This document shows positions 5,741 to 62,072 of a stretch of 64,000 nt of DNA, in pieces; the first letter of the stretch is position 1, and each line of letters starts with the position of its first letter. The stretch is from assembly GCA_963796455.1 (NCBI GenBank), contig CAWCLO010000001.1, forward strand, positions 231,372 through 295,371. Direction: 5' to 3'. The position numbers and the translations under genes are program-made. The DNA comes from Candidatus Sulfomarinibacteraceae bacterium. GTDB taxonomy: Bacteria; Acidobacteriota; Thermoanaerobaculia; Thermoanaerobaculales; Sulfomarinibacteraceae. The notes under the pieces were generated by a model. That model was given only the letters and a program-made list of their open reading frames with translations, made no database searches and was not told the DNA's origin.

Positions 5741-5787
5741 TTCGGAGTTCGGAATTCGGAGTTCGGAGTTCGGAGTTCGGAGTTCCG
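5741..5787 (+). repeat. heptamer tandem array (TTCGGAG/TTCGGAA) x6.5
   Basis: It starts on the base after the TAG stop at 5738-5740 and reads TTCGGAG TTCGGAA TTCGGAG x4 TTCCG. Confidence 0.95.
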
Positions 5788-5886
5788 CTCAATGTTTCTC
5801 GAGGCGGTTGCCAGGATCACTGCGTCGTTGCCTGATGTCGTCGCTTCGCGGGTCGGACATCGGGCCGGGAATCGGTGGTAGCGGAT

Positions 5887-5921
5887 CGGAGAAACCGCAG
5901 ATCACGCAGATGAACGCAGAT
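5887..5921 (+). repeat. dispersed 35-nt motif CGGAGAAACCGCAGATCACGCAGATGAACGCAGAT
   Basis: An exact 35/35 reverse-complement copy lies at 45769-45803, and a degenerate copy at 45519-45553. Confidence 0.9.
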
Positions 5922-5990
5922 ATCAGATCGCAATAGGTGACGTGCAACCAAACCGATCACCGGAGCAACAGGCCCGCGAGCGCCGGAGGC

Positions 5991-6066
5991 GCGACAGATT
6001 ATTAGCCTGGGGCTCACGCTCCAGGTTTGGCGACCACACAAATTTATGAGCCCTGAAGGGGCGACA
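5991..6066 (+). repeat. dispersed ~76-nt element (GCGACAGA..AGCCTGGGGC..GAGCCCTGAAGGGGCGACA)
   Basis: A similar copy in reverse orientation lies at about 18431-18507. The alignment is by eye and contains several substitutions and indels. Confidence 0.7.
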
Positions 6067-6102
6067 CAAAAAAACCGCCCTCCCAGCTATGCGGGAGAGC
6101 GG
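6066..6102 (-). terminator. rho-independent terminator of the DsbA-like gene
   Basis: On the minus strand, CCGCTCTCCC-GCATAGCT-GGGAGGGCGG forms a 10-bp stem including one G-U pair, followed by TTTTTTTG. Confidence 0.75.
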
Positions 6103-6116
6103 TGGGGTGTTCCTTT

Positions 6117-6152
6117 TCGAAAATTCCGAATTCCGAATTCCGAATTCCGAAC
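6117..6152 (-). repeat. heptamer tandem array (TTCCGAA on plus strand, TTCGGAA in the sense of the minus-strand gene) x4
   Basis: Copies at 6124-6151 end 3 nt from the stop codon at 6155-6157. The array is the inverted partner of the one at 5741-5787. Confidence 0.95.
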
Positions 6153-9435: not shown

Positions 9436-10917
9436 ATGCAAAAAATTTCTTCGAGCGTCCCCGACATGCGTGTCCGGAGGGTCAACAACGCAGTCGTCCA
9501 GGCGGATGGGGTCCGGATCGTGTATTGGATGACCGCCGCCCGCAGGACCCGTTTTAATTTTGCTCTGCAACGCGCCGCCGACTGGTCCCGCCAGCTGGGC
9601 AAACCCCTCGTGATCCTCGAGGCGCTTCGTTGCGACTATCCGTGGGCCAGTGACCGCCTCCATCGGTTCATCATCGAAGGCATGAGCGACAACTCGTTCG
9701 CCCTCGATGGCACCGATGCGACGTACTTTCCCTATATCGAGTTGTCCGCCGGAGCCGGGAGCGGCCTGCTCGAAGCGATCTCCGAGAATGCGGCCGTCGT
9801 GGTGACCGATGACTTTCCAACCTTCTTCCTGCCGAAGATGACCGCGGCGGCGGGCTCCAGGCTGCCGGTCCTGCTCGAGGCCGTCGACGGGAATGGGTTA
9901 CTGCCGATGGCGGCGGCGGACCGCGAGTTTGCCACCGCCTACTCCTTTCGGAGGTTTCTGCAAAAGAACCTCCTGGCGCACGTCGACCACATCCCGCTCG
10001 AGAATCCTCTCGCGGAATCACTCCCGAAGCCTCTCCCCCTTCCGGCCCAAATCACCCGGAAATGGCCTCAATCAGCAGACCTGCTGGTTTTGGGCGACAC
10101 CGTTGCGCTCGCCGGCCTACCCATCGACCACACGGTCGTCGAGGCACCGCTGCGAGGTGGTTCGCGGGCAGCCGAGGCTGTGTTGCGGGAGTTCATCGAC
10201 GACCGGCTCACTTCCTATAACAGTGATCGAAACCGCCCCGAGGCGAAAGGATCGAGCGGGCTCTCCCCCTACCTCCACTTCGGCCATATCTCGACCCACC
10301 AGATCTTTCTCGAGACCATTCGGCGGGAAAGGTGGAGTTCCGAAGATCTTGTCCCCCCCGCAAACGGCCGTCGGGCGGGGTGGTGGGGGCTGAGCGAAAA
10401 CGCGGAGGCATTTCTCGATCAGGTCGTCACCTGGCGAGAACTCGGGTTCAACTTCTGCTCAAAACGGACCGATCACGATCGGTGGGAGTCGCTCCCCGAT
10501 TGGGCGCAACGCACCCTCACCGAGCACGCGATCGACACCCGTGAGCACCTCTATACCCTTGAACAATTCACCGCGGCGGCCACTCACGACCCGTTGTGGA
10601 ATGCCGCCCAGAACCAACTGATTCGAGAAGGCACCATCCACAACTATCTCCGGATGCTGTGGGGCAAAAAGATCCTCGAATGGACGCGAGAACCTCGCGA
10701 AGCGCTCGCAATCATGATCGAACTCAACAACCGCTATGCCCTCGACGGTCGCGACCCGAATTCCTACACCGGCATCTTCTGGGTTCTCGGCCGCCACGAT
10801 CGGCCCTGGGGGCCCGAGCGGCCGATTTTCGGCAAGGTCCGGTATATGACCTCCGCCAACACGGCCCGCAAATTTCCAGTCAAAAAATACATTCAACGCT
10901 ACGGAGAAAACCGATGA
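9436..10917 (+). CDS. phr: deoxyribodipyrimidine photolyase (class II-like)
   Basis: Photolyase hallmarks: VYWM...RFNFAL near the N-terminus and HNYLRMLWGKKILEW plus WGP...FGKVRYM in the FAD domain. ATG at 9436 lies 8 nt after GGAGG. The ORF track starts at 9421. Confidence 0.85.
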   Translation: MQKISSSVPDMRVRRVNNAVVQADGVRIVYWMTAARRTRFNFALQRAADWSRQLGKPLVILEALRCDYPWASDRLHRFIIEGMSDNSFALDGTDATYFPYIELSAGAGSGLLEAISENAAVVVTDDFPTFFLPKMTAAAGSRLPVLLEAVDGNGLLPMAAADREFATAYSFRRFLQKNLLAHVDHIPLENPLAESLPKPLPLPAQITRKWPQSADLLVLGDTVALAGLPIDHTVVEAPLRGGSRAAEAVLREFIDDRLTSYNSDRNRPEAKGSSGLSPYLHFGHISTHQIFLETIRRERWSSEDLVPPANGRRAGWWGLSENAEAFLDQVVTWRELGFNFCSKRTDHDRWESLPDWAQRTLTEHAIDTREHLYTLEQFTAAATHDPLWNAAQNQLIREGTIHNYLRMLWGKKILEWTREPREALAIMIELNNRYALDGRDPNSYTGIFWVLGRHDRPWGPERPIFGKVRYMTSANTARKFPVKKYIQRYGENR

Positions 10918-12332
10918 AGATCCTGGTCACCGGAGCAACCGGCTATATCGGCGGACGGCTCGTTCCGCTGCTCCTCGACATGGGCCACGAGGTCCGGGTC
11001 ATGGTCCGCGATCCGGCCCGGATCGCGGGACGTTCGTGGTCCTCCGAGGTCGAAGTGGTTCGAGGAGATGTGGAGGACCGAGCATCGCTTGCCGGTGCCC
11101 TTGCGGGCATCGACACCGCCTACTACCTCGTTCACCTGATGGGGACCGGCGGAGATTTTGTCAAGCGCGACCGGGCCGCGGCCGCCAACTTCGTGGATGC
11201 GGCGGACGGGGTATCGCACGTCATTTACCTGGGCGGACTCTTGCCTCAGGCGGAAGCGGTCTCCGATCATCTCTCGAGCCGCGCCGAGGTCGGCGAAATC
11301 CTCCGCGCCGGGTTGCCCGCAACCGAGTTTCGGGCCGGCCCGGTGATCGGCTCCGGGTCTGCCTCTTTCGAAATGGTGCGCTATCTCACCGAACGCCTTC
11401 CGGCGATGATTGCGCCGCGGTGGATCCTCAACACCGTGCAACCCATCGCCGTTCGCGACATCCTCCGCTATCTGCTCCAGGCCCTGGACCGCGGACCCTC
11501 CGGGGTCTACAACGTCGGCACCGATCCGCTGAGCTTCAAGGGCATGATGCAGGAATTCGCCTCGGTGCGTGGGCTACGGCGGCTCATCGTGCCCGTCCCA
11601 GTGCTCGCACCCCGCCTGGCGGCCCTCTGGGTCGGGCTGGTGACACCGATTTCGAACAGGCTCGCGGTTCCGCTCATCGAAGGGGTCGTCCACCCGGTGG
11701 TGGCGGACACCTCCCGCGCGAGGGCCGACTTCCCGGAGATCGAGCCGATGTCCTACCGCGAAGCGGTCGCCCGAGCTCTCCAGCAGACGACGGAGAACGC
11801 AGTCACTACGAGGTGGTCGGGAGCGCTGGGTCATGCGCCGGCCTTCGAGCTCACCCAGACCGAGGGTTCGATCAAAGAAACACGAAGTTATCGGGCAGCC
11901 GCAGATCAGGAGTCCACCTTCCGCGCCTTCGCGTCGCTCGGTGGCAAGAACGGCTGGCTCTTCTGGAACTGGGCCTGGTCCCTGCGCGGCCTCATGGACC
12001 AGATCGTAGGAGGCCCGGGACTGCGCCGGGGCCGCCGCCACCCAACCGAGATCGCGCCCGGCGACGCCATCGATTTCTGGCGGGTTGAGCGGGTCGAGGC
12101 TCCCCATCTCCTGCGGCTGCGAGCCGAGATGAAAGTCCCGGGCCGCGCCTGGCTTCAGTTGGAGGCGGTGCCCGAAGGGGACGGGACCCAGGTCATTCAG
12201 ACCGCCATATTCGAGCCCTTCGGCCTCGGTGGACAGCTCTACTGGAACCTGCTCTACCCGGTCCACAAGATCATGTTCTCCGGGCTTGTACGGGCCATCG
12301 CGGCCCGAGCCGAAGACGAGGCTCGATCATGA
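10914..12332 (+). CDS. SDR-family NAD(P)-binding protein with a C-terminal DUF2867-like domain
   Basis: MKILVTGATGYIGG Rossmann motif. The start makes an ATGA overlap with the photolyase stop. The ORF track's longer N-terminus (from 10596) is an out-of-gene extension. Confidence 0.8.
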   Translation: MKILVTGATGYIGGRLVPLLLDMGHEVRVMVRDPARIAGRSWSSEVEVVRGDVEDRASLAGALAGIDTAYYLVHLMGTGGDFVKRDRAAAANFVDAADGVSHVIYLGGLLPQAEAVSDHLSSRAEVGEILRAGLPATEFRAGPVIGSGSASFEMVRYLTERLPAMIAPRWILNTVQPIAVRDILRYLLQALDRGPSGVYNVGTDPLSFKGMMQEFASVRGLRRLIVPVPVLAPRLAALWVGLVTPISNRLAVPLIEGVVHPVVADTSRARADFPEIEPMSYREAVARALQQTTENAVTTRWSGALGHAPAFELTQTEGSIKETRSYRAAADQESTFRAFASLGGKNGWLFWNWAWSLRGLMDQIVGGPGLRRGRRHPTEIAPGDAIDFWRVERVEAPHLLRLRAEMKVPGRAWLQLEAVPEGDGTQVIQTAIFEPFGLGGQLYWNLLYPVHKIMFSGLVRAIAARAEDEARS

Positions 12333-18388: not shown

Positions 18389-18687
18389 TGTCATCCTGAG
18401 CGGATGCGGCGCCGAGCGGCGGCAGATTATTCTGTCGCCCTTTCAGGGCTCTCTTCATTTTTGATCCCGAATATCTGGGTCTCACGCCCCAGGCTATTCT
18501 CTGTCGCCGCTTCGCGGCTTTGCTTCACCGTCATCAAAAAACTGGTTCCCCGGATAACCCGTGGGCGGGCCCTAAAGGACCCGCCTACAGAATCTATGCT
18601 GATCTCGAGCTGTCGGCGCGTGCCAGGACACACCGGCAAGGCAGAGGCTGAACTGCGACGAGGGGATTCATGATGTCATCCTGAGCG
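18382..18687. repeat. composite repeat unit bounded by a 21-nt direct repeat TTCATGATGTCATCCTGAGCG
   Basis: The 21-mer is exact at 18382-18402, where it contains the methyltransferase TGA stop, and at 18667-18687. The interior holds the ~76-nt element (reverse copy of 5991-6066) and the hairpin GGGCGGGCCCTAAAGGACCCGCC. Confidence 0.85.
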
Positions 18688-18756
18688 AAGCGCCTTTTGC
18701 GCGAAGTCGAAGGATCTAAGCGACTCACTCTGGTTGACGACTCGATCATCGGATCT

Positions 18757-18822
18757 CCCCTTCTCACCGTCTCCCTTTCTCCCCTTCTCCCCTTCCCCCT
18801 TTCTCCCTTTTACCCTTTCGGG
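18757..18822 (-). repeat. octamer tandem array (TCCCTTTC/TCCCCTTC, reverse complement of GAAAGGGA)
   Basis: A C/T-only run with 8-nt periodicity. It belongs to the same family as 36914-36972, in the opposite orientation. Confidence 0.85.
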
Positions 18823-20872: not shown

Positions 20873-20893
20873 GCTGGATCCTGGATGCTGGAT
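20873..20893 (+). repeat. heptamer array (GCTGGAT/CCTGGAT) x3
   Basis: It lies 15 nt after the stop at 20855-20857 and belongs to the CTGGATG family. Confidence 0.85.
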
Positions 20894-24799: not shown

Positions 24800-24820
24800 C
24801 TGGATGCTGGATGCTGGGTC
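24800..24820 (+). repeat. heptamer array (CTGGATG) x3
   Basis: It starts 4 nt after the TAA stop at 24793-24795. Its inverted partner lies at 25713-25741. Confidence 0.9.
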
Positions 24821-24944
24821 ACTCGAGTCCAAGACAGAGTCTCAGACGGCGATCAGGGACGGCGACAGCGATCAGCCTCAGCGACAGGGATCCGCGATCA
24901 GTGTTCAGCGTCAGCGAACAGTCATCAGCGACAGCAAACGGCAC

Positions 24945-25298: not shown

Positions 25299-25301
25299 GG
25301 T

Positions 25302-40296: not shown

Positions 40297-40301
40297 CTTT
40301 T

Positions 40302-43197: not shown

Positions 43198-43306
43198 AGA
43201 GCCATGATACACCGACCTGCGGAGGCTGGATATTGAACCGTTCATACTTTGTGAAATTTAGCACAAAGACGCTGCGAATCGTTACCACATCTGCTACACT
43301 TTCCGG

Positions 43307-45518: not shown

Positions 45519-45803
45519 CGGAGAGACCGCTGATAGCGCAGATGGGCGCAGATAGTCGAACCGTGTTTTGATTTTCGTGTCGTCGATCAACATTTCCAGC
45601 GACTTCGGCAACGTTGAACCGCAAAGTTCATTTTTGACCAAATCAAACAGCTAACCTGCGGGGTCAATGCGTTGCCGGCTGGTGGCCCGACGTCTTTGTC
45701 TTGCAGGTCCTCAACGGGAGCGAGAGACGTGAGCGGTATTCGAGTCCGTTCAATCGCCGGGCCCGGAAATCTGCGTTCATCTGCGTGATCTGCGGTTTCT
45801 CCG
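45519..45803. repeat. MITE-like unit: degenerate and exact copies of the 35-nt CGCAGAT motif in inverted orientation around a ~215-bp AT-richer core
   Basis: 45519-45553 (CGGAGAGACCGCTGATAGCGCAGATGGGCGCAGAT) faces 45769-45803, which is the exact reverse complement of 5887-5921. Confidence 0.6.
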
Positions 45804-45818: not shown

Positions 45819-45841
45819 GGAATTCCGAATTCCGAATTCGC
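45819..45841 (-). repeat. heptamer array (AATTCCG x2.5 on plus strand, TTCGGAA family in the sense of pgsA)
   Basis: It ends 6 nt from the pgsA stop at 45848-45850. Confidence 0.85.
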
Positions 45842-50752: not shown

Positions 50753-50781
50753 CGCCCGGGCTTCGGCCCGGGCGTTTTTTT
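50753..50781 (+). terminator. rho-independent terminator
   Basis: CGCCCGGGC-TTCG-GCCCGGGCG followed by TTTTTTT. Confidence 0.9.
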
Positions 50782-50874
50782 GGCTATGGGCTGTGGTATT
50801 GGGGCTATGGGGCTATGGGGCTATGGGGCTATGGGGCTATGAGGCTATGAGGCTTTTGGGGCTCTGAGGTTGTG
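50782..50874 (+). repeat. GGCTATG/GGGCTATG/AGGCTATG tandem array
   Basis: It begins on the base after the terminator T-run and has about 11 units of 7-8 nt. Confidence 0.95.
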
Positions 50875-53587: not shown

Positions 53588-53625
53588 AAGCTATGAGCTA
53601 TGCGCTTTGAGCTATGAGGCTCGAG
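53588..53625 (+). repeat. AGCTATG-type tandem array (GGCTATG family variant)
   Basis: It starts 1 nt after the sucD TAG and lies between the stop codon and the terminator. Confidence 0.8.
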
Positions 53626-53636
53626 CGTGTTTTCGA

Positions 53637-53667
53637 ACGCCCCTGGGAAACCGGGGGCGTTTTTTTC
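53637..53667 (+). terminator. rho-independent terminator of sucCD
   Basis: ACGCCCCTGG-GAAA-CCGGGGGCGT followed by TTTTTTT. Confidence 0.85.
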
Positions 53668-53848: not shown

Positions 53849-53967
53849 GATGTCATCCTGAGCGCAGCGCCTCGGGCGCGGAGTCGAAGGATCTGCGGCT
53901 TCGTTGTCCTTCCGGCCACCCATAGATCCTTCGACTACGCCCTGCAGGCTCCGCTCAGGATGACATC
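53849..53967. repeat. cloverleaf-like palindromic element (GTCATCCTGAGCG family), copy 3
   Basis: It has the same termini and the same inner stem AGTCGAAGGATCT/AGATCCTTCGACT as copy 2. It is flanked by ~36-nt direct repeats at 53710-53745 and 53982-54017. Confidence 0.9.
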
Positions 53968-54037
53968 CGGAAGCGACCTGGGCTTGCCTTCAGTCGTGGG
54001 GCAGCAGGTAGGGGCAGCCCTGATATCAGGGAGGAAC

Positions 54038-57000
54038 TCACAACCGCGCGATTTCGTCCGCATCCAGAAACCACAACTCCATATGCGGTTCGTAGCTGAG
54101 TTCGAGCGCCTTTTGCAGGGCCTCGGCGTAGATCCGAATCTGCGGTTCGTAAACGGCGGTGCGCTGATCGATCGCCGGCTGATCCGGCAGAATGTCGGTC
54201 TTGTAGTCGGCGACCACAAGGCGATCATCGTCCGGATCGAGGTAGACGAGATCGATAAACCCGGAGACGACGGCGCCAGGCGGGCCCTCACCCTCCGACC
54301 ACAGCACGAGAGGCAACTCCCTCGCCATGACCCTTGGAGCGAGTGCTTCGAGGCGGGCCAGGCAATCGCCTTCAATCAAGTGACTCAGAAGATCACCGAT
54401 TCTGCCGGCGCCCTCGTCTACGTCGCGATCCGCAACCAGGCTGCCCAGCACGATATCTCGCCGAGCGGCAATCTGTGGCGCCAACGCTTCGTCGAGATCC
54501 AGGGTCTCGAGCAATTTATGCACGGCGGTGCCAAGCGCCATCGCCAGGTCCCGATCGGATGCGCCCTCCCCTGCCGTGTCGCCGTCCTCGGCATCGATGA
54601 GTCGAAGTCGATCATGAGCCTCTGCAGAAGCAGACCTGAAAACGGCCTGGGCCATCCGCTTGGCGGCCTCGCGACGGGCGACGGCCAACCCTTCGGCACG
54701 TTGCAACGCACCGGCTGGGAGCGACCAATCTTCGCTCGAGCCGATCGCGGGAACCTCGGCTTCCGACGGGTCAGCATATGCAGGCATCACACGAACCACG
54801 TGGGGCGCGGCATCAGCCTCGCGTTCGATCTCCCCATCTTGCTGCCGTGCGACAGCCGCCGGATCGAGACGGCGACCCAACAGATCGGCGAAATCAGCGG
54901 CCGCTTCGGGAGGCACCTCCTTGCCGGCTGCGATCCAACCACCCGACACCACTAATCGTTTCTTGGCCCTGGTGGCAGCCACATAGAGCAACCGAACCAA
55001 TTCGGCCCTGGTTTTCTGGGTCTGCTCCCACTCGGCGGCGGCAAGACCCGGTGTCAACCAACCAAAAATCCGGTATTCGGTTCGACCATCGATCTTGCTC
55101 ACGGAGGCCTTGTTCCGATCACCGCCGCCGCGGCCGCCCTTGTGGATCTGGGCCACATAGACATGTTCGAAATCGAGTCCCTTGGCGCGGTGGATGGTCA
55201 TCACGTGGACCGCATCGGTCTCGAGATCGGGCGGCACAGGGACCCGGCTCTCCTTGCCCTCCTCAACCGCCTGGCGGAGGAATCTCGCGAGTTCGGCATC
55301 GCCGCCGTGACCCGATCCAAGCGTCTCCTCGAGATCGCTGAGAAAGCGGTCGACCCGCGCTCTCCGAAACCCTCCAAGGTAACGAGCCGCTGCCGTCACC
55401 TCGGCCAGCCACAACGTCCTGACTTTTTCGACAAACACATCCGGTGGGTCCTCGCGCAACGACAGCCGGAGGTCGGCGATGAACTCAACAGCAGCCTGCG
55501 CCGCGACCGTCCAATTCGGCAGGACGTCGCTTCCGGGGGTGTCGGTGGGCGTTGCCTTTCGCGCGCTCTCAATGCTCTGTCGAGCAGCCGCCGCCTGCAC
55601 CGAGCCCGGACCGGCGAGCCGCGCCATCTTGCCCGGAAATCCTGCGTCCCATAACGGTGCCAGGGCGGCGTCGGGCACGCCAACCACATCGCTTCGGAGC
55701 ACCGTCAGGAGAGCCAGAACATCCGTAGGCTCGAGAACGCAACGAATGAGGGCCGCCACCTCGACCACCTCGCGCTGGCGGTAGTAGTCGCGCTCTCTGG
55801 CCACCTCGTATGGAATTCCCAATTCGCGAAAGGCGGCCAAAAGCTCTTCCTGGGCGGTCGTGACCCGCAGCAACACCGCCACATCGCCCCACGAAGTGAT
55901 CACCCCACCCGCGTGGAGCCTGAATATGTCTGTTGCCAGGGCACGTGCCTCGAGCGCCGTTGTGACCCGGTCCGAGTTGCCCTTTTCCGGGCCCACTCCA
56001 TCATCACCCCACGGCCAGGCCAACCAATGCTCGACCGTCCGCCACGGTCCTTCGTCGACGCCGGCCACGCCGCGCCGTTCTTCCGTGGCTTCGAGTCGTT
56101 GAAAGGCCGGTTGAACCCCCTTTTCGGAACGCATGACCGGCGCCACCAACCGCTCGACCTCGTCGAGGATCGGAGTCACCGAGCGGAAGTTGCGCACCAG
56201 ATCGACGGTCTCGCCGCCTTCGTCCTTCACACGCGCCACAAATGCGTCATAGGCGGCGAGATCGGCACTGCGCCACGCATAAATCGACTGTTTCGGATCG
56301 CCGACGATAAAAAGAGAGGGCCGACGCTCCGGATCACCCGACAGGGCGAGCCACTCCACCAACCGGCACTGGACATCGTCGGTGTCCTGAAATTCGTCGA
56401 CCAGGAGGTGATCGATACCGGCCACGACCTCGTGCCGAACCCCGGGCGAGTCCGCCAGAAGCCCTTCGGCGTAGCGGAGAAGATCCGAAAAGGTCAGCAT
56501 TCCGTGCTCGCTGCGCCGCGTCTGTACGGTCCCGAGCAACTCCCCCACCACAGCGCGGGCCGCAATGAGCTGATCTTGACACGGCTCCATGAGCGGCCCG
56601 AGCACAGCAGCCAGCCGGCCGGAAGCCGCTGCCACCTCGTGCTCTACGTCCTCGAGACGCCCACTTTCCGTCTTGTTGAATTTGAGCTTCGACCAGTCCT
56701 TGAGACGACCGACAACCCTCGGGTCGATGGTTGCTGCCGCGACCTCGAGTTCAGCCATGGAAGGCGCGGGGCTTTGCTCCGTCACCACCGCCAACTCGTC
56801 CGCCACATCCCTGCTCAAGGCAATGACCTCGGCCTTGACGCCATCGAGACGGCCGCCCACCGCCAGACTGAAATCACCCACCGCCGACCGCAGACGCTCC
56901 GCAACTGCTGTGCTGTCAGCAAAGGGGTCCCCGGCAAAGGTCTCCGGACCGGCCCCGGCCTCAACCAGTTGCACCAGCGCCTCGACGAGATCTCCCGGGG

Positions 57001-57610
57001 ACACACCCTCGATCGCCAGGCGCTCCCAGTGGTCGCGCTTCGGGTCCTTCTCGAGACCACGCAGCGACTCCTCCACCACCTCTTCGACCAGGGCTTCGAT
57101 TCGTGCACCGTCGGCATCCACCTCGAAGCGCGGGTGCAACCCGGCCTCCAGGGGATAGGTCGCGAGAAGCCGTTGGCAAAAGGCGTGGATGGTGGAGACG
57201 ACCAGGCGGTGGCTCTCCTCGGAAAGAGCACGCGCCCGCTTCGAGATCTCGCCCTTCGACGCCTCCACGACGCCGGGCTCCGGGTCCCACCCCACCGGAA
57301 CCTCGCCTTCCGCGAGATCAAATAATGCCGTACCGATTTTTCGCGCCATCTCGGCGGCCGCGGCCTCGGTGAAAGTAATGGCCACCACCCTCTCGATAAC
57401 CCGTCTGGCCACGGTCTGGGGATCAGAACCAGCTTCGACGTGACGCTCCCAGCCGGGACCCACACACCACACGGCGATCCTCGCCACCAGGAGCGCCGTC
57501 TTGCCGGTCCCGGCCCCCGCCACAACCACCACCGGGTGACCGAACTGGCTTTGGGCGACGCGGCGCGACTGCTCGTCGGCGGCCAGCGGATCAAGGAGTG
57601 CAGCCGTCAT
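54038..57610 (-). CDS. addA: UvrD/PcrA-type helicase with C-terminal PD-(D/E)XK nuclease (AddA-like)
   Basis: Walker A AGAGTGKT, helicase motifs (DEFQDT, VGDPKQSIY), and a C-terminal nuclease region (GFIDLVY...DYKTD). The ATG at 57610 overlaps the addB stop as ATGA. Confidence 0.85.
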   Translation of the reverse strand: MTAALLDPLAADEQSRRVAQSQFGHPVVVVAGAGTGKTALLVARIAVWCVGPGWERHVEAGSDPQTVARRVIERVVAITFTEAAAAEMARKIGTALFDLAEGEVPVGWDPEPGVVEASKGEISKRARALSEESHRLVVSTIHAFCQRLLATYPLEAGLHPRFEVDADGARIEALVEEVVEESLRGLEKDPKRDHWERLAIEGVSPGDLVEALVQLVEAGAGPETFAGDPFADSTAVAERLRSAVGDFSLAVGGRLDGVKAEVIALSRDVADELAVVTEQSPAPSMAELEVAAATIDPRVVGRLKDWSKLKFNKTESGRLEDVEHEVAAASGRLAAVLGPLMEPCQDQLIAARAVVGELLGTVQTRRSEHGMLTFSDLLRYAEGLLADSPGVRHEVVAGIDHLLVDEFQDTDDVQCRLVEWLALSGDPERRPSLFIVGDPKQSIYAWRSADLAAYDAFVARVKDEGGETVDLVRNFRSVTPILDEVERLVAPVMRSEKGVQPAFQRLEATEERRGVAGVDEGPWRTVEHWLAWPWGDDGVGPEKGNSDRVTTALEARALATDIFRLHAGGVITSWGDVAVLLRVTTAQEELLAAFRELGIPYEVARERDYYRQREVVEVAALIRCVLEPTDVLALLTVLRSDVVGVPDAALAPLWDAGFPGKMARLAGPGSVQAAAARQSIESARKATPTDTPGSDVLPNWTVAAQAAVEFIADLRLSLREDPPDVFVEKVRTLWLAEVTAAARYLGGFRRARVDRFLSDLEETLGSGHGGDAELARFLRQAVEEGKESRVPVPPDLETDAVHVMTIHRAKGLDFEHVYVAQIHKGGRGGGDRNKASVSKIDGRTEYRIFGWLTPGLAAAEWEQTQKTRAELVRLLYVAATRAKKRLVVSGGWIAAGKEVPPEAAADFADLLGRRLDPAAVARQQDGEIEREADAAPHVVRVMPAYADPSEAEVPAIGSSEDWSLPAGALQRAEGLAVARREAAKRMAQAVFRSASAEAHDRLRLIDAEDGDTAGEGASDRDLAMALGTAVHKLLETLDLDEALAPQIAARRDIVLGSLVADRDVDEGAGRIGDLLSHLIEGDCLARLEALAPRVMARELPLVLWSEGEGPPGAVVSGFIDLVYLDPDDDRLVVADYKTDILPDQPAIDQRTAVYEPQIRIYAEALQKALELSYEPHMELWFLDADEIARL

Positions 57611-60600
57611 TGGTCGGTTTCCGCCCGGGCAATGCCGAGCCACCACAAAGAGCGCGCACATTCCACGACCCGGTCGCCACTGTTCTCATCACCATTCATG
57701 AATCGCACGAGATCGCGCCGGAAGGCAGAATCATCGCGGCGGCAGGCCTCGGCGACAGCGCAATAGCTGCAGTGCTTCGCCGCACGCCCATCGGCCTCTT
57801 CGACCCTCGGGAAGGCGATTCCGACCGAGCGACCCTGCACGATGGTTCGGATCGCCGTTTCGAAAACCTCCATGTCATCCGCGTTGTCACCATCGATCGC
57901 GATCTCGCGGATCTCGTCTTTCCAGTCGTCCTTAGGTTTGAGGTAGAGGTATTTGCCGACACCATCGGGCACGCCGTCGGCGCGAGAGTATGCAGCGGCC
58001 TGCAAAAGGCGACCTCTGGCAATCAAGGTGCGGATGTTGGTGCTCCGGGAGGGCTCGGTGGAGGCTTCCACCGCAGGTTTCGCAGCCTTGTAATCCACCA
58101 AGACCGTGACCCCGTCCACGTTGTCCACGCGATCGGCACGGAACCTCAATTGATGCCCGACATCTGGAATGGACGTCCGTCCTTCAACTTCTGATCCGAG
58201 GACGGAAGGCAGAGCCCCGGTGTTCCACTCGAGCCTTCGTTCGATCTCGAGAAACTGCCGCGCCCGGGCAGCCAACAATGGCGCCATGCCCATCGAAGCA
58301 AGGCCTTCTGCGGTCGCGACCCGATGTGCTTCCCGGTTGACGAGATCATTCAGGCTCCCGGCATCCGGCCAGCGGACACTCACCGGATCCCTTGAAACGA
58401 GCTCGGCCAACCCACCGAGATTGCCGACGGCATCGGCCACCACCGTCTCGAGCACCCCGTGCACCACCTGGCCCACCATCGGACCGTCGATGCCGGGCAG
58501 ACCGAGAAGCGGATCGGGCATCGGCAGCACGCCGAGCCGACGCTGAACAAAGGCCCGCCACGGACAGGTTCCGATGCCCTCTGCATGGGTTACCCAGAGG
58601 TCATCGTCACCCTTCTCGTCGATTTCGCCGGTGAATCCGAACCATGCTCCGGGACCGGTCTCATCCGAAAGCCGTTCAACCGCAGCGAGTAGATCGGCAC
58701 GAGCGGTGGCAAGCAGCCCGGGAGACACCGTCCCGAAGCCCGATCCAGAATCGCAGAGCCCCTCTGCGATCGCAGCTTCCAACAATTGACCGGTGCCGCC
58801 TGGGCCCGCCAAAGGCGCCGCGAGAACCGCTATTTCATAGGCCGGTCTCGGCCGGGATGCAATCTCGTCATTCGACCACAGCTGAGGCACACTCATCGGA
58901 TCTCCAACACCCTCACGTCGCCTCAGCCGGTCGACAAAAGGTGATGGCGTCAGGCACCCCTCGCTGCCAAAAACATGCCACGACAGCACAGCCGAAGGGG
59001 CACTCGACAGCAGTTGGGCAAAGAGATAACGTTCCTCGTCAGCGCTCCGACCCTTGACCGGCATCTCCGGCAGGACATCGGCTGCGAGACGGGCGCGAAT
59101 CGCCTCGGGCAACATCGGGTCCTCGTGACCGACCCGCGGGAAAACACCTCGGTTGAGACCCACGACGTGAAGATGTTCGAAGGTCCGTGCCCGGGATTCC
59201 ATAACGGTCAGAACCTGCACCCCCGCGCCATCCCCTCCGAGCGGCACATCGCGGACCCCGTCGAGCCGGTCGGCGAGCAATTTCAGCCACTCCTCCCGGG
59301 CCAATTCGTAGCTCGCCGGCACCTCGCGACACAAACCATCGAGAGCCTCGTGAACAGCTCGCGACTCCGGTGTTCCCTCACTCCACCCGAGAGCCCCGAG
59401 CACCGCGGCCGTGTGTCGAGAGCAATCCCCGGCCGACGCCCGTTCAGGACTGCGCTCGAGCAGCGACACCAGGATTCCAGCCTCGGCAACGGCCGAGCGA
59501 AGGACATCCTTTGCCAGGCGCCGCGAAGATCCATCGCCACCGTCGACCTCGTCTTCCCGTCCGATCGCGAGTGGCAACCGAACCCCGCGCGGCGGCACCG
59601 CTTTGTCCGGCTGCGTCGCCAGATCGGCCAGGCTCAGGACACCCAGGACTCGCAACCCGAGCAACAGTTCGGTGGAAGCTTCGTTATCGGCGCGGGCCTC
59701 GATCCACTGATCAACCCGGGTCGCCGGGCCGCGTCGGAGGAGCTCCGTCAATCGACCTACACGGCGTTTTGGCCCCGCCCCGGGGACCACTGCCCCGGCG
59801 CCGGAAAAGGGCACACCCAGACGATGGAAGTGGCGCCGCAACGGCAGCGCCATGGAATCGAGCGTCCGGCCCACCACCGCCACGTCTTCTGCTTCGACGC
59901 CGTCATCGAGCAGACCGCGGATTCTTTCGGCCACCCAACGCGCCTCGGCCTCCACATCAGGCGCCTCCGCCAGCTCGATTTCGGGTGGTGGATCCTGTCG
60001 CCGGTCGGTCTCGTGGTCCAGGTGGTTCATCCGCTCATCAAGCCGGGTCAGATAGGCCCCCCCGAGATCGTCCCTCTCCGGAGCCGCCGGATCCGGCGGC
60101 CGATCGAGCATGACGGTCCCCCCGAGCACGCGGATCATGGCCACCAGAAGATCCGCCGCGACACCGGTGACGTCGGCAAAACCGTGCACCAACAATGCTC
60201 TGGTGGGGAGCAGATCGGGGCCGGCGATCTGGAGGGCATCCTCCGCCAGTTGCAGGGCGCGCATCGAACGCCTCAGACCCAGATCCTCTGCACTCTCGAA
60301 CGAAGACGCCGCCAGCCGCACCAGGGATGCGGAGCGCACGAGCCGCTCGGGCGCCACTTCACCGGCCACATCGTCGATCCGTTCGAGCACACCCTCTTCG
60401 TTGCCCGGCATGAAGCCGGCATCGAGAAGATCACGGACCGCACCCACCACCGCATCGTAACCATCGGTCAGACCGTCGAGGCTGGTGCGTAAGGTCGGCT
60501 CGGTTGCGGCGGTACGGCGAACCTGCACCTCGAAACCGGCATCGGCTCGTGGTGGCGTCAGACCGCTTCGCGCCGCCACCTCGAGAGCCAGGCCGAAAAG

Positions 60601-60936
60601 AGTCTGGACCTGGATTCCCACCACGGCGCCACGGCGCCGCGCAAGAACCCGCAGGATGTGGCGCCGCAGGCTTCGGGAGGGCACAACGACCCGTATCGGG
60701 ATCGCCAGATGCTCGACGCCGGCGCCAAACAAATTCTCGATTTCTTCGAGCAGCCGCTCCTCTGTCGCGCGGGCGCCTCGGCAGGAAATGATACGTGATC
60801 GGATTTCAGAAAGTTGATTCATCGGGACGAATCCATGGGACCACGGGCGGAGGGAGGTGTCAACACGACCCTTCGAGAGCGGGTTGTGCAGTGAAAGATC
60901 GTGCTTCAAATCAGCGAGTTCAAGGCCACGTGTCAC
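57607..60936 (-). CDS. addB: AddB-like PD-(D/E)XK nuclease/inactive-helicase subunit with a C-terminal Fe-S cysteine cluster
   Basis: About 1100 aa, encoded upstream of addA. C-terminal nuclease motif VDYKAAKP and the cysteine triad CSYCAVAEAC. I saw no Walker A. The start may be M39 (60822). Confidence 0.75.
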   Translation of the reverse strand: MTRGLELADLKHDLSLHNPLSKGRVDTSLRPWSHGFVPMNQLSEIRSRIISCRGARATEERLLEEIENLFGAGVEHLAIPIRVVVPSRSLRRHILRVLARRRGAVVGIQVQTLFGLALEVAARSGLTPPRADAGFEVQVRRTAATEPTLRTSLDGLTDGYDAVVGAVRDLLDAGFMPGNEEGVLERIDDVAGEVAPERLVRSASLVRLAASSFESAEDLGLRRSMRALQLAEDALQIAGPDLLPTRALLVHGFADVTGVAADLLVAMIRVLGGTVMLDRPPDPAAPERDDLGGAYLTRLDERMNHLDHETDRRQDPPPEIELAEAPDVEAEARWVAERIRGLLDDGVEAEDVAVVGRTLDSMALPLRRHFHRLGVPFSGAGAVVPGAGPKRRVGRLTELLRRGPATRVDQWIEARADNEASTELLLGLRVLGVLSLADLATQPDKAVPPRGVRLPLAIGREDEVDGGDGSSRRLAKDVLRSAVAEAGILVSLLERSPERASAGDCSRHTAAVLGALGWSEGTPESRAVHEALDGLCREVPASYELAREEWLKLLADRLDGVRDVPLGGDGAGVQVLTVMESRARTFEHLHVVGLNRGVFPRVGHEDPMLPEAIRARLAADVLPEMPVKGRSADEERYLFAQLLSSAPSAVLSWHVFGSEGCLTPSPFVDRLRRREGVGDPMSVPQLWSNDEIASRPRPAYEIAVLAAPLAGPGGTGQLLEAAIAEGLCDSGSGFGTVSPGLLATARADLLAAVERLSDETGPGAWFGFTGEIDEKGDDDLWVTHAEGIGTCPWRAFVQRRLGVLPMPDPLLGLPGIDGPMVGQVVHGVLETVVADAVGNLGGLAELVSRDPVSVRWPDAGSLNDLVNREAHRVATAEGLASMGMAPLLAARARQFLEIERRLEWNTGALPSVLGSEVEGRTSIPDVGHQLRFRADRVDNVDGVTVLVDYKAAKPAVEASTEPSRSTNIRTLIARGRLLQAAAYSRADGVPDGVGKYLYLKPKDDWKDEIREIAIDGDNADDMEVFETAIRTIVQGRSVGIAFPRVEEADGRAAKHCSYCAVAEACRRDDSAFRRDLVRFMNGDENSGDRVVECARSLWWLGIARAETDQ

Positions 60937-60997
60937 TACTGTCCAATAAAAATCGTCATTTGACGGTGCCCACCTGACAACACGAGGTTTATGGGTT

Positions 60998-61340
60998 GAT
61001 TGTTGGCATTTCCGGTTCGTGGTTGCGCCGCGTCCGAGTCGGCGTCCGTGCCCGTATTACAGCGGCAGCGACAGTGTCCAGGGGCAGCGACAGGAACCAG
61101 CGATCAGTGTTCAGCAACAGGGAACAGCGGCAGTGGCAGCAATCCGGTGCAGTGATGGCGTGGTCACCTCCGGGGCGTTCAACAGAAGGAAGAGCCGCTG
61201 TGGTGTAGGCGTCTCGCCTGCCCACCGTGCGGCCGAGACGGCCGCACCACAAAGACCGGAGCCCCGAAGAAGTGAGTGCTGTTCGCTGTCCCGGCCGCTG
61301 ATCGCTGACGCTGAATCCTGTTCGCTGTCGCTGGACGCTT
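60998..61340 (+). repeat. ORF-less, inverted relative of the 4HB-gene element
   Basis: It starts TTGGCATTTCCGG, matching the reverse complement of the CCGGATATGCCAA end. It has CAGCGAC arrays (61058-61145), a degenerate hairpin core with CACCTCCGGGGCGTTC and GTGCGGCCGAGACGGCCGCAC (61163-61275), and GTCGCTG arrays (61277-61337). There is no 4HB ORF. Confidence 0.75.
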
Positions 61341-61466
61341 ATCGAGACTCCTGGTTGGAAAAGAGTGGTCACGAGTGAAGAGTGATGGGCTCCCGGGAGG
61401 CGGGCCGGCTCAACCCCTGACCCTGAACTCCAGACTCTTCTCGCGACGGCGAGGCGATCAACGTTT

Positions 61467-61967
61467 ATGATGGCTATCGCGCAGCAAGGGGGCACTATGT
61501 CTGGAGTCGAAGGCCGGGTCATGAAACAGTGGAATCGCGCCAAGGATTCGGGCTTCCGTCGTCGGCTGTTCAGCCGGGCCATCGGCAGGGCTGCCCGCTA
61601 TACCGGCACCATCGGCGCCCAGGTCGAAGTGCTCGAAGCCGGCCGATCGATGGTCACCATGAAGGACCGCAAGGCCGTCCGCAACCATCTGCAATCGGTC
61701 CACGCCGTCGCCCTGACCAATCTGATCGAACTCACGGGCAGCCTCTCGATCATCGCCGCACTGCCACCGGACACACGGATGATCCCGATCCGACTCGAAA
61801 CCGATTTCGTCAAGAAGGGCCGCGGCCTCATGACCGCCGAGGGAATCTGTGAGATACCAGAATCAAACTCGGAAGCCGAACTGCCCGCTGAAGTCACGAT
61901 CACCGATTCAGAGGGCGACGTGGTTGCCCGGGGCCAGGTGTCCGTAAAAATCGGACCGCGGTCCTGA
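61467..61967 (+). CDS. hotdog-fold protein (DUF4442/YiiD C-terminal-like thioesterase)
   Basis: 166-aa ORF with the pattern NHLQSVHAVALTNLIELTGS...DFVKKGRG. The start is uncertain (M1, M11 or M19). Confidence 0.6.
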   Translation: MMAIAQQGGTMSGVEGRVMKQWNRAKDSGFRRRLFSRAIGRAARYTGTIGAQVEVLEAGRSMVTMKDRKAVRNHLQSVHAVALTNLIELTGSLSIIAALPPDTRMIPIRLETDFVKKGRGLMTAEGICEIPESNSEAELPAEVTITDSEGDVVARGQVSVKIGPRS

Positions 61968-62072
61968 AGGCTTGGGGCTTGAGGCCCGGGGCTTGAACAG
62001 ACCGGATCGCGTTCGGTGTGCCTCAAGCCTCACGCCTCAGGCCCCAGGTCCCAGGTCCCAGGTCTCAGGCCC
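61968..62072. repeat. inverted heptamer arrays filling a convergent spacer (GGCTTGA type facing CCTCAAG/CCCAGGT type)
   Basis: The left array (61968-61998) starts on the base after the TGA. The right array (62021-62072) runs up to the sppA stop. GGCTTGAGGC pairs with GCCTCAAGCC. Confidence 0.9.

Follow-up and report, generated by a model that had tools for sequence, protein, structure and literature searches.

The closest precedent for the repeats described here is found in Xanthomonas and in Nostoc PCC 7120, whose genomes carry G-rich tandem heptamers (GGGAATC and GGGGAYT, respectively) that are about 90% intergenic (Rehm et al., 2015, PMC4692102). These repeats lie 0-50 nt from open reading frames and some overlap stop codons, the G-rich strand being the coding strand downstream of a gene and the non-coding strand upstream of it; they are scarce between divergent genes, form 70-75 convergent inverted pairs per genome and have no assigned function (Rehm et al., 2015, PMC4692102). 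The arrays analysed here come from a 64,000-nt stretch of a Candidatus Sulfomarinibacteraceae genome (contig CAWCLO010000001.1), hereafter the window, and resemble those repeats in being tandem heptamers, in their intergenic location and geometry, in overlapping stop codons and in forming inverted pairs. They differ in host phylum (Acidobacteriota), in having about ten unit families per genome where the precedent has one unit per genus, in that most units lack a G3 tract whereas the Xanthomonas and Nostoc units form G-quadruplexes (G4), and in an asymmetry that arises from a shortage of C and an excess of T rather than an excess of G. That study describes neither arrays lodged between a stop and a conserved terminator nor drift of the unit among orthologous sites.

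Mazel and co-workers reportedly described, in 1990, the cyanobacterial heptamers STRR1 (CCCCAGT), STRR2 (TTGGTCA) and STRR3 (CAACAGT); to our knowledge they have been assigned no function, and we know of no definition of STRR by 3'-edge placement, sense polarity or inverted pairing. The original prediction for this locus had likened its arrays to STRR, which is apt as a resemblance (in both, several tandem-heptanucleotide families are dispersed in the non-coding DNA of one genome), but taxon and units differ, only 62034-62072 (CCCAGGN) resembles STRR1, and the Xanthomonas and Nostoc repeats are nearer. The REP, BIME and REPIN sequences of Enterobacteria and Pseudomonas have roles in mRNA 3'-end protection and termination, and REPINs require a cognate RayT that has the same REP on its flanks. 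They share with our arrays an extragenic location, a concentration at 3' ends and in convergent spacers, inverted pairs of fixed arrangement, hairpins, mosaics with other short motifs and vertical persistence, but whereas our arrays repeat a 7-nt unit in tandem, a single REP unit is already an imperfect palindrome of 20-40 nt, and RayT in the relatives here has unrelated flanking repeats. Tail-less ('I-shaped') or bidirectional hairpin terminators are alike in that a long hairpin fills a convergent spacer, e.g., 61968-62071; the stems here, however, are tandem heptamers with the U-rich arm 5' and the A-rich arm 3', the reverse of the order A-tract, hairpin, U-tract. TAACTGA heptamer direct repeats are found in Beggiatoaceae, cyanobacteria and Bacteroidetes (MacGregor, 2015, PMC4679880); they too are intergenic tandem heptamers adjoining open reading frames, with a unit shared by distant phyla and no evident transfer mechanism, but they lie mostly a few nt upstream of starts, have a single unit and almost never form inverted pairs.

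Arrays and their placement at gene boundaries

TRF returned 33 merged arrays in the window (period 6-9, at least 2.8 copies; Table 1), 29 of them intergenic though coding sequence makes up 86% and non-coding sequence 14% of the window (binomial p=2e-21). At a score of at least 40 there are 25 arrays (24 intergenic) and none in 20 shuffled windows, and a GGCTATG x3 pattern has 13 matches versus 0 expected. Arrays occupy 14 spacers, the number originally given. Gene ends were checked by Pfam, by a coding model (leave-one-out strand errors 0/39) and by conserved orthologues; hyp101 corresponds to a 99-aa open reading frame in relatives, and hyp283 is 69-73% identical to its counterparts there. 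A small vocabulary of units is common to non-orthologous sites and other genomes.

One short-read contig (L122) begins within the array at 38848-38886 and breaks off within that at 40210-40298, as assembly or sequencing artefacts might, but this explanation deserves almost no credence: in a second ERR11523668 assembly, Logan contigs match 61443-64000 and 38857-40282 at 100% identity, arrays included, and seven independent MAG loci have similar arrays at orthologous sites, as do more than 100 other genomes. The arrays are not the product of one assembler; they are a real, lineage-wide form of the heptamer repeats known from Xanthomonas and cyanobacteria.

By TRF boundaries nine arrays lie at most 15 nt from a stop codon, not twelve as first counted, and the array at stop 41822 is 22 nt away instead of 14; adjacency to stops itself exceeds random placement, with 8 arrays counted in the test against a mean of 3.55 under uniform placement within their own spacers (p=0.005). 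With a 30-nt edge criterion, arrays occur at 10/29 3' edges and 3/29 5' edges of the window, and at 27/82 and 2/86, respectively, in relatives (seven syntenic loci, 56-90% protein identity, independent gene calls; p=5e-8). Together this gives 37/111 versus 5/115. Arrays are strongly 3'-edge-biased in this lineage, but the strict placement originally claimed did not hold: four window arrays face start codons from 20-80 nt upstream (three inside the edge criterion), arrays crowd the divergent spacer 36493-37112, and Pfam-confirmed divergent spacers of Gemmatimonadales are filled by GGCTATG pairs. Only about five strong canonical terminators serve some 25 transcription-unit ends in the window, and arrays stand before a terminator, after one or without one. 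At DsbA and sucD the order is stop, array, intrinsic terminator; arrays so placed are therefore transcribed as 3' UTR, with which the RNA-level role proposed at the outset is compatible.

Table 1. Repeat arrays and associated features, in window coordinates; distances from stop codon to array follow TRF boundaries.
Feature	Position	Strand	Stop codon (distance)	Context
TTCGGAG x6.7	5739-5785	+	5740 (overlap)	conserved 101-aa gene 5435-5740(+)
CGCAGAT-type module (GGAGAAACCGCAGATCACGCAGATGAACGCAGAT)	5887-5924	+		linked to TTCGGAR arrays
Intrinsic terminator	6064-6103	-		DsbA-like gene; conserved in four genomes
TTCGGAA x4.3	6122-6151	-	6155 (3 nt)	between DsbA-like stop and terminator; inverted partner of 5739-5785
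AGGGGAGA/GAAAGGG-type octamer array (TCTCCCCT x6.8)	18754-18819	-		80 nt before ArsA-like start
CTGGATS x2.9	20874-20893	+	20857 (16 nt)	ArsA-like2
CTGGATG x2.6	24800-24817	+	24795 (4 nt)	DUF1684
Left degenerate CAGCGAC-type arm	24849-24935	+		flanks 23S_rRNA_IVP gene 24945-25331(-)
Right degenerate CAGCGAC-type arm	25452-25592	-		same 23S_rRNA_IVP unit
Degenerate CTGGATG-like partner, weak	25713-25745	-	phnE (37 nt)	by eye
GGCTATG(A) x9.4	31812-31883	+	31760 (51 nt)	
CAGCGAC-type arm, then CGGGCA x5	32568-32712			second IVP-gene copy
AGTTTTG x4.6	36522-36553	+		29 nt upstream of minus-strand ABC ATPase start; G-strand points away from gene
GGCGGAGG x3, CTGGATG x3.4, CGAGCC x3.3, GAAAGGGN x3.4	36585-36715	+		short-array run in divergent spacer
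CCGTTC x3.5, then GAAAGGGN x7.4	36894-36972	+		
TCTGCTCC x10	37002-37083	-		C-rich on + strand; ends ~30 nt before HAD start 37113
GTTTGAG x3.9	38704-38730	+	38699 (4 nt)	Exo_endo_phos; array at orthologous position in 4/4 relatives
Inverted TTGAGTT-type partner (AACTCAA x5.6)	38848-38886	-		20 nt before 4HBT start; spacer folds as hairpin
Degenerate GGCTATR array	40210-40298	+	40207 (2 nt)	fills whole Fpg-Fer4 spacer
GGCTATGA x7.2	41744-41799	-	41822 (22 nt)	conserved minus-strand gene 41822-42673
CGCAGAT-type module	45766-45803	-		inverted copy of 5887-5924
TTCGGAA x2.9	45820-45839	-	45848 (8 nt)	CDP-alcohol phosphatidyltransferase
M16b intrinsic terminator	50753-50781	+		hairpin + T7; conserved in L119, L123, L125
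GGCTATG(G) array	50782-50870	+		begins right past M16b terminator T-run; orthologues: AATTTTG arrays
AGCTATG x4.3	53589-53618	+	53586 (2 nt)	between sucD stop and its terminator
Intrinsic terminator	53636-53666	+		after sucD; read from sequence
Gene-less remnant of CAGCGAC-armed unit	61060-61344			arms 61060-61130 and 61296-61344
GGCTTGR x3.9	61969-61995	+	61967 (1 nt)	DUF4442
Inverted GGCTTGA partner + CTGGGRC x5.6	62020-62072	-	62072 (overlap)	runs into SppA stop; entire spacer is one hairpin

Polarity, inverted pairing and base composition

Among 3'-edge arrays with a G/C bias, the G-rich, C-poor strand lies in gene sense 9:0 in the window (p=0.004) and 24:2 in relatives (p=1e-5), which bears out the claim that the arrays read in one sense relative to the gene. 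More generally, the two arrays of a pair run in inverted orientation, the T/G-rich arm leading, and their spacers are therefore imperfect palindromes; because this rule reaches 5' edges and divergent spacers, the 'sense of the gene they follow' is a special case. Pair polarity is fixed in other genomes (10:0), and both arms of one spacer carry an identical unit even where the unit varies between genomes. Among the inverted same-family pairs first reported, 5741/6122 and 61969/62020 are clear, whereas 24800/25713 has a degenerate partner below the TRF threshold. The region 61960-62080 folds at -72.9 kcal/mol (z=-5.9), 38695-38910 at z=-3.3 and five compact pairs in relatives at z=-3.1 to -6.1, the array arms often extending a GC-rich core hairpin. 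The transcribed strand is not consistently favoured by folding energy, and no partner could be recognised for about half of the arrays (20874, 31812, 40210, 53589). The 5887-5924 module is 97% complementary to that at 45766-45803, and a CGCAGAT-type module also follows an ATTTCGG array in L125; the CAGCGAC-type arms around the 23S_rRNA_IVP gene are 79% complementary over 86 nt.

In gene sense, the 37 3'-edge arrays have C 0.11 and T 0.36, and array-free 3' flanks C 0.31 and T 0.20. As array G content (0.285) is not raised above background (0.30), the asymmetry stems from C loss. This counts against a mechanism put forward for the Xanthomonas and Nostoc repeats, in which the G-rich non-template strand forms a G-quadruplex or R-loop. 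So does the fact that most units, here and in relatives, have at most GG or a single G (TTCGGAR, CTGGATG, GTTTGAG, AATTTTG, GAATTCT, GGATATT); we regard the mechanism as very improbable, even though G3-4 tracts spaced compatibly with G4 do occur in some units (GGGCTAT, TGGGGCTA, GAAAGGGN, CGGGCA), the G-rich strand is non-template for transcription leaving the gene, and GGGAATC repeats form G4 in vitro (PMC4692102).

C loss and T gain with unchanged G on the sense strand are the signature expected from displaced-strand cytosine deamination, and fit a neutral origin in which slippage-prone heptamers would arise beside hairpins or terminators and persist by slippage equilibrium, with ORF-boundary trimming by purifying selection and promoter exclusion; polarity and C depletion would then reflect mutational asymmetry or a translation-signal filter, not function. 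Such self-perpetuating arrays are rather unlikely in our judgement. Array-free 3' flanks are not depleted in C, the Gemmatimonadales divergent spacers have a C-rich sense strand beside the start codon, opposite to what deamination predicts, and neither pair polarity nor arm-to-arm unit sharing would be expected. Deletion bias should moreover erase neutral 30-90-nt tracts at 56-90% protein identity, yet the arrays stay pure and in place. To be set against this are the freely drifting unit, the variable position relative to terminators, the absence of partners for about half of the arrays and the finding of no regulatory role for analogous repeats (PMC4692102).

Persistence at orthologous loci with drift of the unit

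Orthologous copies of the DsbA array occur in four genomes, each lying between a conserved stop and a terminator with compensatory changes; the array units are TTCGGAA, GAATTCG/T, GAATTYT and NAGTTYT. Arrays with differing units likewise stand at the Exo_endo_phos stop in 5/5 genomes, the Fpg stop in 4/5 and the ack stop in 3/4 syntenic genomes (in the window, the last has nothing beyond weak CGCAGAT-like repeats). The comparison of orthologous spacers thus indicates that arrays stay in place by inheritance even as their repeat unit changes.

Inheritance between a conserved stop and a conserved terminator argues against mobile foldback elements aiming at gene ends, the other origin originally suggested. 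It appears improbable that the arrays are termini of foldback, MITE-like or REPIN-like elements, moved by a transposase, Y1 (RayT-type) or other, and owing polarity and vocabulary to founder elements: array copies have two short modules in common but no element body, and array junctions show neither a target motif nor a target-site duplication. In favour of such elements, pair polarity is fixed, two genomes share the combination of TTCGGA array and CGCAGAT module, and the unit vocabulary crosses non-orthologous sites and genomes, GGCTATG arrays occurring in several phyla; this recurrence also upholds the view that the arrays are not independent microsatellite births. Inverted arms moreover enclose variable cargo, namely the IVP gene copies and remnant and a Fer4 gene missing in some relatives, but the Fer4 genes of the window and L127 share 78% identity, a level matching that of their neighbours, and Fer4 is therefore probably ancestral and lost elsewhere. 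A relative does carry a RayT gene; RayT genes are, however, flanked by their own unrelated 30-nt inverted repeats (GGTGCCAGGCCCAACGATT..AACGATTT), absent from the window and all other loci, and the three RayT loci examined contain no heptamer arrays.

Conservation of period and copy number amid drift at other positions would suit arrays serving as periodic platforms, on which a multimeric protein binds RNA or DNA and recognises one short core per 7 nt, with GGA (CsrA-like) or NAG triplets (HutP) as candidates. A GGA core keeps a fixed phase in TTCGGAR, CTGGATG, GGATATT, GGAATTA and TGAGGAA, CTGGATG is one mismatch off the CsrB repeat CAGGAUG, and the L130 array reads NAGTTYT. We nevertheless hold such platforms to be very unlikely, as the families lack a universal core (GGA is missing from GGCTATG, GTTTGAG, AATTTTG, GAATTCT and AACGTTGA), partner arms present the complement and no candidate protein was identified.

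A possible role at transcript boundaries

We tentatively favour slippage-maintained 3'-flank arrays that would act as REP/BIME-like transcript-boundary structures, a function deduced purely from geometry. Their 3'-edge placement, orientation and stop adjacency beyond uniform placement point to it, as do the 3' UTR arrays at DsbA and sucD, the orthology of the former, the arrays of differing unit at the Exo_endo_phos, Fpg and ack stops, the long hairpins formed by pairs of fixed polarity and shared unit, the scarcity of strong canonical terminators, the C-poor, T-rich sense strand and the precedent of the same geometry (PMC4692102). Against it, an array looks redundant wherever a canonical terminator is present, the T/G-first polarity is opposite to that of an intrinsic terminator, folding energies favour neither strand consistently, and about half of the arrays lack partners. 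Arrays also occupy a third to 60% of 3' edges, so positional 'conservation' could be recurrence, and the Gemmatimonadales pairs between two gene starts are unexplained by a 3'-end function. The DsbA terminator sits between two arms; its transcript should therefore not hold both, and the coupling of these arms may act at the DNA level. Overall, the original prediction was partly confirmed as an observation and partly supported as an interpretation.

Under the transcript-boundary explanation, short-period arrays (mostly 7-8 nt), inherited in place across the lineage at gene boundaries and mainly in the first bases past stops, would be kept array-like by replication slippage and gene conversion, and the unit would therefore drift while position, period and copy number (~3-12) persist. 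We infer that selection maintains them, through a property exerted at the level of the transcript. With a C-poor, T-rich sense strand and an inverted partner commonly tens of nt downstream or at the opposite spacer edge, they may work in a manner akin to REP/BIME extragenic palindromes or tail-less hairpins, unpaired arrays providing a C-poor, weakly structured linker between stop and terminator. Such transcribed 3'-flank structures would set the 3' ends of transcripts, protect them and insulate adjacent transcription units from each other, convergent ones especially.

Arrays at gene boundaries and their polarity

The 75 TRF rows obtained for the window reduce, once merged, to 33 arrays with a period of 6-9 (mostly 7-8) and at least 2.8 copies. 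Twenty-nine of the 33 are intergenic, although 86% of the window is coding (p = 2e-21), as are 24 of the 25 arrays scoring at least 40, a score reached by none in 20 shuffled windows; the number of array-bearing spacers, put at 14 by the original prediction, was reproduced. For the gene map, about 70 candidate ORFs were searched against Pfam, and the genes confirmed in this way served to train a 3-periodic Markov coding model, which made no strand errors in leave-one-out trials (0/39); this supervised model replaced a self-trained codon model, which was dropped for about five strand errors.

The distance to a validated stop codon is at most 15 nt for nine arrays and 16 and 22 nt for two others. 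Uniform placement of every array inside the spacer that contains it would put 3.55 within 15 nt of a stop, against the eight counted by the test (p = 0.005). Every gene end facing a spacer of at least 40 nt was then scored as an edge, with an array counted if it lay within 30 nt, and arrays were found at 10/29 3' (stop-side) and 3/29 5' (start-side) edges of the window. In seven 21-kb loci of relatives, found via the Fpg and DsbA-like proteins, syntenic with the window in two regions, gene-called independently of the window map and 56-90% identical to it in protein, the corresponding figures are 27/82 and 2/86 (p = 5e-8). The 3' bias is therefore genuine and lineage-wide, though not strict: the strict 3'-end placement that had been claimed does not hold, since arrays also stand before gene starts. 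The divergent spacer 36493-37112 is packed with them, an AACTCAA array (x5.6) lies 20 nt upstream of the 4HBT start, and a TCTGCTCC array (x10) stops about 30 nt upstream of the HAD start, which was put at 37113 using the gene length in relatives and the sequence. A -10-like TACACT is located 7-8 nt 5' of the ATG in the HAD and 3HCDH genes (37099-37115 and 43292-43309) and is conserved in a relative (L123 8050-8073, 12325-12346); its position suggests very short-leader or leaderless mRNAs in the lineage, and would put the upstream arrays ahead of the promoter.

Orientation was scored as G minus C of the TRF consensus, a measure that is uninformative for units such as GAATTCT. The expectation that arrays read in the sense of the gene they follow was borne out at 3' edges, where the gene-sense strand is the G-over-C strand (9:0 in the window, 24:2 in relatives), but the rule is wider than that: for arrays with the nearest ORF boundary within 100 nt, the G-rich strand is directed outward from the gene both at 3' (11:0) and at 5' boundaries (5:0) of the window. 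A public-genome scan for three consecutive GGCTATG units found at least 117 loci, the hosts among the matches listed being many Gemmatimonadales as well as Acidobacteriota, Chloroflexota, Verrucomicrobiota and Cyanobacteriota. Among the listed loci the same orientation prevails 51:20 at 3' and 46:12 at 5' boundaries, counts that use our own gene caller except for ten Pfam-checked flanking genes, and same-unit inverted pairs run GGCTATG...CATAGCC in ten cases and in the opposite order in none. Given this fixed order, such spacers are imperfectly palindromic, and whichever strand is read, the T/G-rich arm comes first. N-terminal Pfam matches confirmed the ten genes flanking GGCTATG pairs, and several pairs therefore truly sit between two gene starts, abutting the start codons. 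A telomere-like reading, with the G-strand directed outward from a gene block, was rejected, as the members of a same-family pair share one spacer instead of flanking a gene.

Inheritance, pairing and composition of the arrays

Downstream of the DsbA-like gene, one layout is common to four genomes: 2-3 nt separate the stop codon from an array of 4-7 heptamer units, and an intrinsic terminator follows. The terminator is clearly orthologous in the four, with compensatory changes in its stem, and the array units differ by genome (TTCGGAA; GAATTCG/GAATTCT; GAATTYT/CAATTYT; NAGTTYT). This common order with differing units indicates that the array is passed down in place within the 3' UTR and re-homogenised during drift. 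The Exo_endo_phos stop carries an array in 5/5 genomes (GTTTGAG, TTTGAAT, GAATGAG, GAATTCG, GGAATTA), overlapping the stop codon in 4/5 and providing the gene's stop codon in four relatives, and the Fpg stop carries one in 4/5. Arrays of three different units each begin 13-14 nt 3' of the ack stop, and for M16b, for which a metagenome scan yielded three loci, the array begins in three genomes immediately after the T-run of a conserved terminator. In the spacer between the DsbA-like gene and hyp99, a conserved gene of about 99-101 aa, both arms (the two inverted arrays) share one unit in 3/4 genomes, and the shared unit differs across genomes; since the DsbA terminator stands between the arms, their coupling may act on DNA and not via RNA pairing.

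Inverted pairs of one family occur in the window at 5739/6122, 38704/38848 and 61969/62020, with 24800/25713 as a weak fourth, so that the inverted same-family copies predicted at both ends of convergent spacers are upheld for the first and third of these pairs and only weakly for the fourth. The spacer 61968-62071 (104 nt) forms one hairpin (-72.9 kcal/mol, z = -5.9) and 38695-38910 folds at z = -3.3, while five compact pairs directly 3' of stop codons in relatives reach z values of -3.1 to -6.1, the array arms often lengthening a GC-rich core stem. Half of the arrays have no partner, and for 16 pairs no relation was seen between transcription direction and the folding energies of plus- and minus-strand RNA. 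The array hairpins have a U-rich arm 5' and an A-rich arm 3', and not the GC-rich hairpin with U-tract of an intrinsic terminator; canonical terminators are separate features adjoining the arrays, with about five strong ones in the window, where the promoter/terminator scan covers 1-20 kb and the remaining terminators were read by eye.

Read in gene sense, the 37 arrays at 3' edges contain A 0.25, C 0.11, G 0.285 and T 0.36, compared with C 0.31 and T 0.20 in array-free 3' flanks and C 0.32 and G 0.31 in the loci overall; the asymmetry is one of C lost, T gained and G unchanged. Loss of C with G unchanged, at 0.285 against a background of 0.30, speaks against a G-quadruplex explanation, and so does the absence of GGG from most units, TTCGGAR, CTGGATG, GTTTGAG, GAATTCT and AATTTTG all lacking the G3-4 tract that, over four units, confers the capacity to form a G-quadruplex. 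A neutral, self-perpetuating origin of the arrays is still a serious, if rather unlikely, explanation. Its best mutational mechanism, cytosine deamination of the non-template (sense) strand, suits the composition, but was rejected as it predicts the wrong strand in divergent spacers and fails for array-free flanks, and a neutral origin leaves the fixed polarity, the arm coupling and the array-specific loss of C unaccounted for. "Translation hygiene", the provision of extra stops after genes, was likewise dropped as a general cause: GGCTATG, TTCGGAR and CTGGATG carry no stop triplet in sense, unlike CATAGCC. Binding cores of the CsrA, HutP or TRAP type were discarded because no core is common to all units.

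Mobile elements and other features of array spacers

It had also been proposed that the arrays are the termini of a foldback mobile element. Orthologous arrays are kept in place, and neither a target motif nor a target duplication was seen at array junctions. When three TTCGGA-array copies are aligned, two from the window and one from L125, their similarity is limited to the array plus a CGCAGAT module of 30 nt, with no conserved internal body, and the orthologous arrays at the DsbA, Exo_endo_phos and Fpg ends, present in 4-5 genomes, do not show the presence/absence variation of a MITE. On these grounds a MITE or foldback transposon is unlikely over the divergence compared. The Fer4 gene (40302-41708), placed between Fpg and a conserved minus-strand gene, has GGCTATG and CATAGCC arrays on either side in the window and TTCGGAT and GAAATCC arrays in L127; it is missing in L123 (10823-10864) and in L125, where a 124-aa ORF is found instead (10823-12039). 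Genomes thus differ in gene content between the inverted arrays that delimit this spacer. Capture of Fer4 as a cassette between arrays was rejected, because the window protein is 78% identical to its L127 orthologue (11003-12313), similar to the neighbouring genes, an identity that makes an ancestral Fer4 the more likely case.

Of the window genes searched against Pfam, none matched Y1_Tnp. A Y1 transposase, named RayT by the sources, is present in one relative, and RayT genes in three further loci, none of which holds heptamer arrays, are flanked by inverted 30-nt repeats of their own. The flank repeat GGTGCCAGGCCCAACGATT..AACGATTT is absent from the window and from elsewhere in the 133 loci collected, and a link between RayT and the arrays was rejected, the flanks being unrelated to the heptamers. 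Because the repeat occurs only at RayT genes, the RayT genes of the relatives appear to be without a dispersed REP population.

Several further elements were observed in or near the array spacers (see table). In relatives, a C-rich CCRCCCACCC tract or its complement comes immediately 3' of many arrays. Because this tract makes up the 5' half of the DsbA terminator stem, its other occurrences may be what is left of terminators, or else alternative partners for pairing. Spacers with arrays also contain a palindromic element some 125 nt long, ATGTCATCCTGAGCG..GTCGAAGGATCT..AGATCCTTCGAC..CGCTCAGGATGACAT, which matched no Rfam family at the gathering score; relatives have a variant, CTGTCATCCCGACCGAG..GGGATCT, which in L129 includes a 40-nt unit repeated four times. 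One copy (53850-53970) comes after an AddA/AddB-type helicase-nuclease pair (54038-60936, minus strand; UvrD and PD-(D/E)XK domains; 1207 and 1109 aa). A 128-aa 23S_rRNA_IVP gene (PF05635, Avd-like four-helix bundle) is present in two copies that are 87% identical including flanks, each between degenerate CAGCGAC-type inverted arms (86 nt, 79% complementary), with a homologue of 83% nucleotide identity in a Ca. Sulfomarinibacteraceae MAG; by analogy, a stem with an ORF in its loop recalls the rRNA intervening sequences from which the family takes its name. An Acido-Lenti-1 RNA (RF01687) match of 45.9 bits was obtained at 18474-18519 (plus strand), and look-alikes, CCTGGGGC..GCCCCAGG, lie in array spacers near 5990-6040 of the window and in L128 (11550-11580, 11790-11830). 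At 243-757 a 164-nt unit is repeated in tandem (x2.8, 95% matches). Every copy contains a hairpin, a T-run and a degenerate version of the 3' portion of the tRNA gene located at 684-757 (minus strand), an arrangement resembling a stack of attachment-site remnants left by integrative elements beside a tRNA.

Positions of elements in the window and in loci from other genomes (L numbers)
Feature	Window	Other loci
RayT-type Y1 genes, inverted GGTGCCAGGCCCAACGATT(N)AACGATTT flanks		L131 3940-4000 and 4964-5005; L132; L133; L123 841-900
CCRCCCACCC tracts		L125 10866-10885, 15722-15733, 15765-15778, 20803-20816; L127 12485-12535; L119 3443-3458
Palindromic element, ~125 nt	31928-32045, 36759-36885, 53850-53970; half copies 18389-18402, 18673-18721	
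23S_rRNA_IVP units	24849-25655, 32053-32745; gene-less remnant 60937-61344	

Known repeats and possible roles

Heptamer repeats have reportedly been recognised as over-represented in some bacterial genomes since 1990 (STRR), and to our knowledge this has never been explained. The over-representation has been quantified for Xanthomonas and Nostoc, in which GGGAATC and GGGGAYT repeats, respectively, are intergenic, lie 0-50 nt from ORFs and sometimes overlap stop codons, are found on the coding strand when downstream and on the non-coding strand when upstream, form 70-75 inverted pairs per genome and are rare between divergent genes; no function was found (Rehm et al., 2015; PMC4692102). The arrays described here share with that type tandem heptamers of at least two units, an overwhelmingly intergenic (29/33) and ORF-proximal location, the G-rich strand coding downstream and non-coding upstream, and frequent convergent inverted pairs (three in the window; 10:0 among listed genomes), but they comprise many unit families, mostly unable to form G-quadruplexes, in a different phylum. 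They are a variant of the Xanthomonas/Nostoc geometry, to which they add orthologous persistence, coevolution of arms and depletion of C. The resemblance to STRR that had been suggested is a fair one, but it does not extend to units or host. The STRR1-3 units (CCCCAGT, TTGGTCA, CAACAGT) have no match among the TRF consensus units, the nearest being GCCCCAG/GGTCCCA at 62034-62072, and the host belongs to the Acidobacteriota, class Thermoanaerobaculia, and not to the (heterocystous) cyanobacteria. That placement draws on the Acido-Lenti-1 RNA match, on the 83% nucleotide identity of the IVP gene to its homologue in the Ca. Sulfomarinibacteraceae MAG, and on sources naming homologues Acidobacteria, Thermoanaerobaculales or Ca. 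Sulfomarinibacter. Like REP/BIME, the arrays are extragenic, favour 3' ends and the spacers of convergent genes, and are fixed in their inverted arrangement; unlike REP/BIME/REPIN, their units are direct tandem repeats of 6-8 nt and not imperfect palindromes of 20-40 nt, only array pairs being complementary, and no cognate RayT with matching flanks was found among the window genes scanned or in the loci of relatives. By taxon and units the arrays are not STRR, by unit structure and RayT linkage they are not REP/REPIN, and they do not look like a MITE.

Most likely, the arrays are maintained by slippage, anchored at gene boundaries, and form the arms of spacer palindromes. A role resembling that of REP/BIME or of tail-less hairpins, in which array hairpins would define and shield transcript ends and insulate neighbouring genes, is possible, and we favour it tentatively because 3' flanks that are transcribed contain the arrays, because these remain pure and keep their position across deep divergence, because pairs of them yield stable hairpins, and because canonical terminators are few. 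Against this role stand the partnerless half of the arrays, the coexistence of arrays with terminators, a polarity opposite to that of an intrinsic terminator, the pairs between gene starts in another phylum and folding without preference for the transcribed strand.

Quite improbable is a sequence-agnostic "boundary code" of one-way transcription gates, with selection on strand-asymmetric composition at a 7-8-nt period and not on the unit. The outgoing transcript would be C-poor, so that Rho could not load and transcription would continue to a proper hairpin or terminator; an incoming transcript, whether antisense, convergent read-through or read-through from upstream that heads for a promoter, would present Rho with an ideal place to load, a G-poor tract in which YC dimers recur periodically. 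A rut site is a C-rich, G-poor and weakly structured RNA of about 70-80 nt with spaced YC dimers. The antisense strand of the 3'-edge arrays has G 0.11, C 0.285 and a YC dimer in every unit, but the mean array is only 36 nt long against that length, and compact pairs bury the tract in a hairpin. If true, such gating would account for the polarity at 3' and 5' edges, for the inverted copies at convergent spacer ends and for free drift of the unit under a conserved period and size.

In practical terms, the arrays interrupt short-read assemblies and may misguide gene callers at C-termini. This lineage offers a cleaner system, with many unit families in one geometry, which tells against unit-specific explanations such as G-quadruplexes, and with arrays fixed between conserved stops and terminators, spacer arms that co-evolve and a strand-specific loss of C that has been quantified. 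The question of why heptamers occur at gene ends is now testable as one among transcript-boundary structure, directional Rho or R-loop gating, and a mutational by-product.
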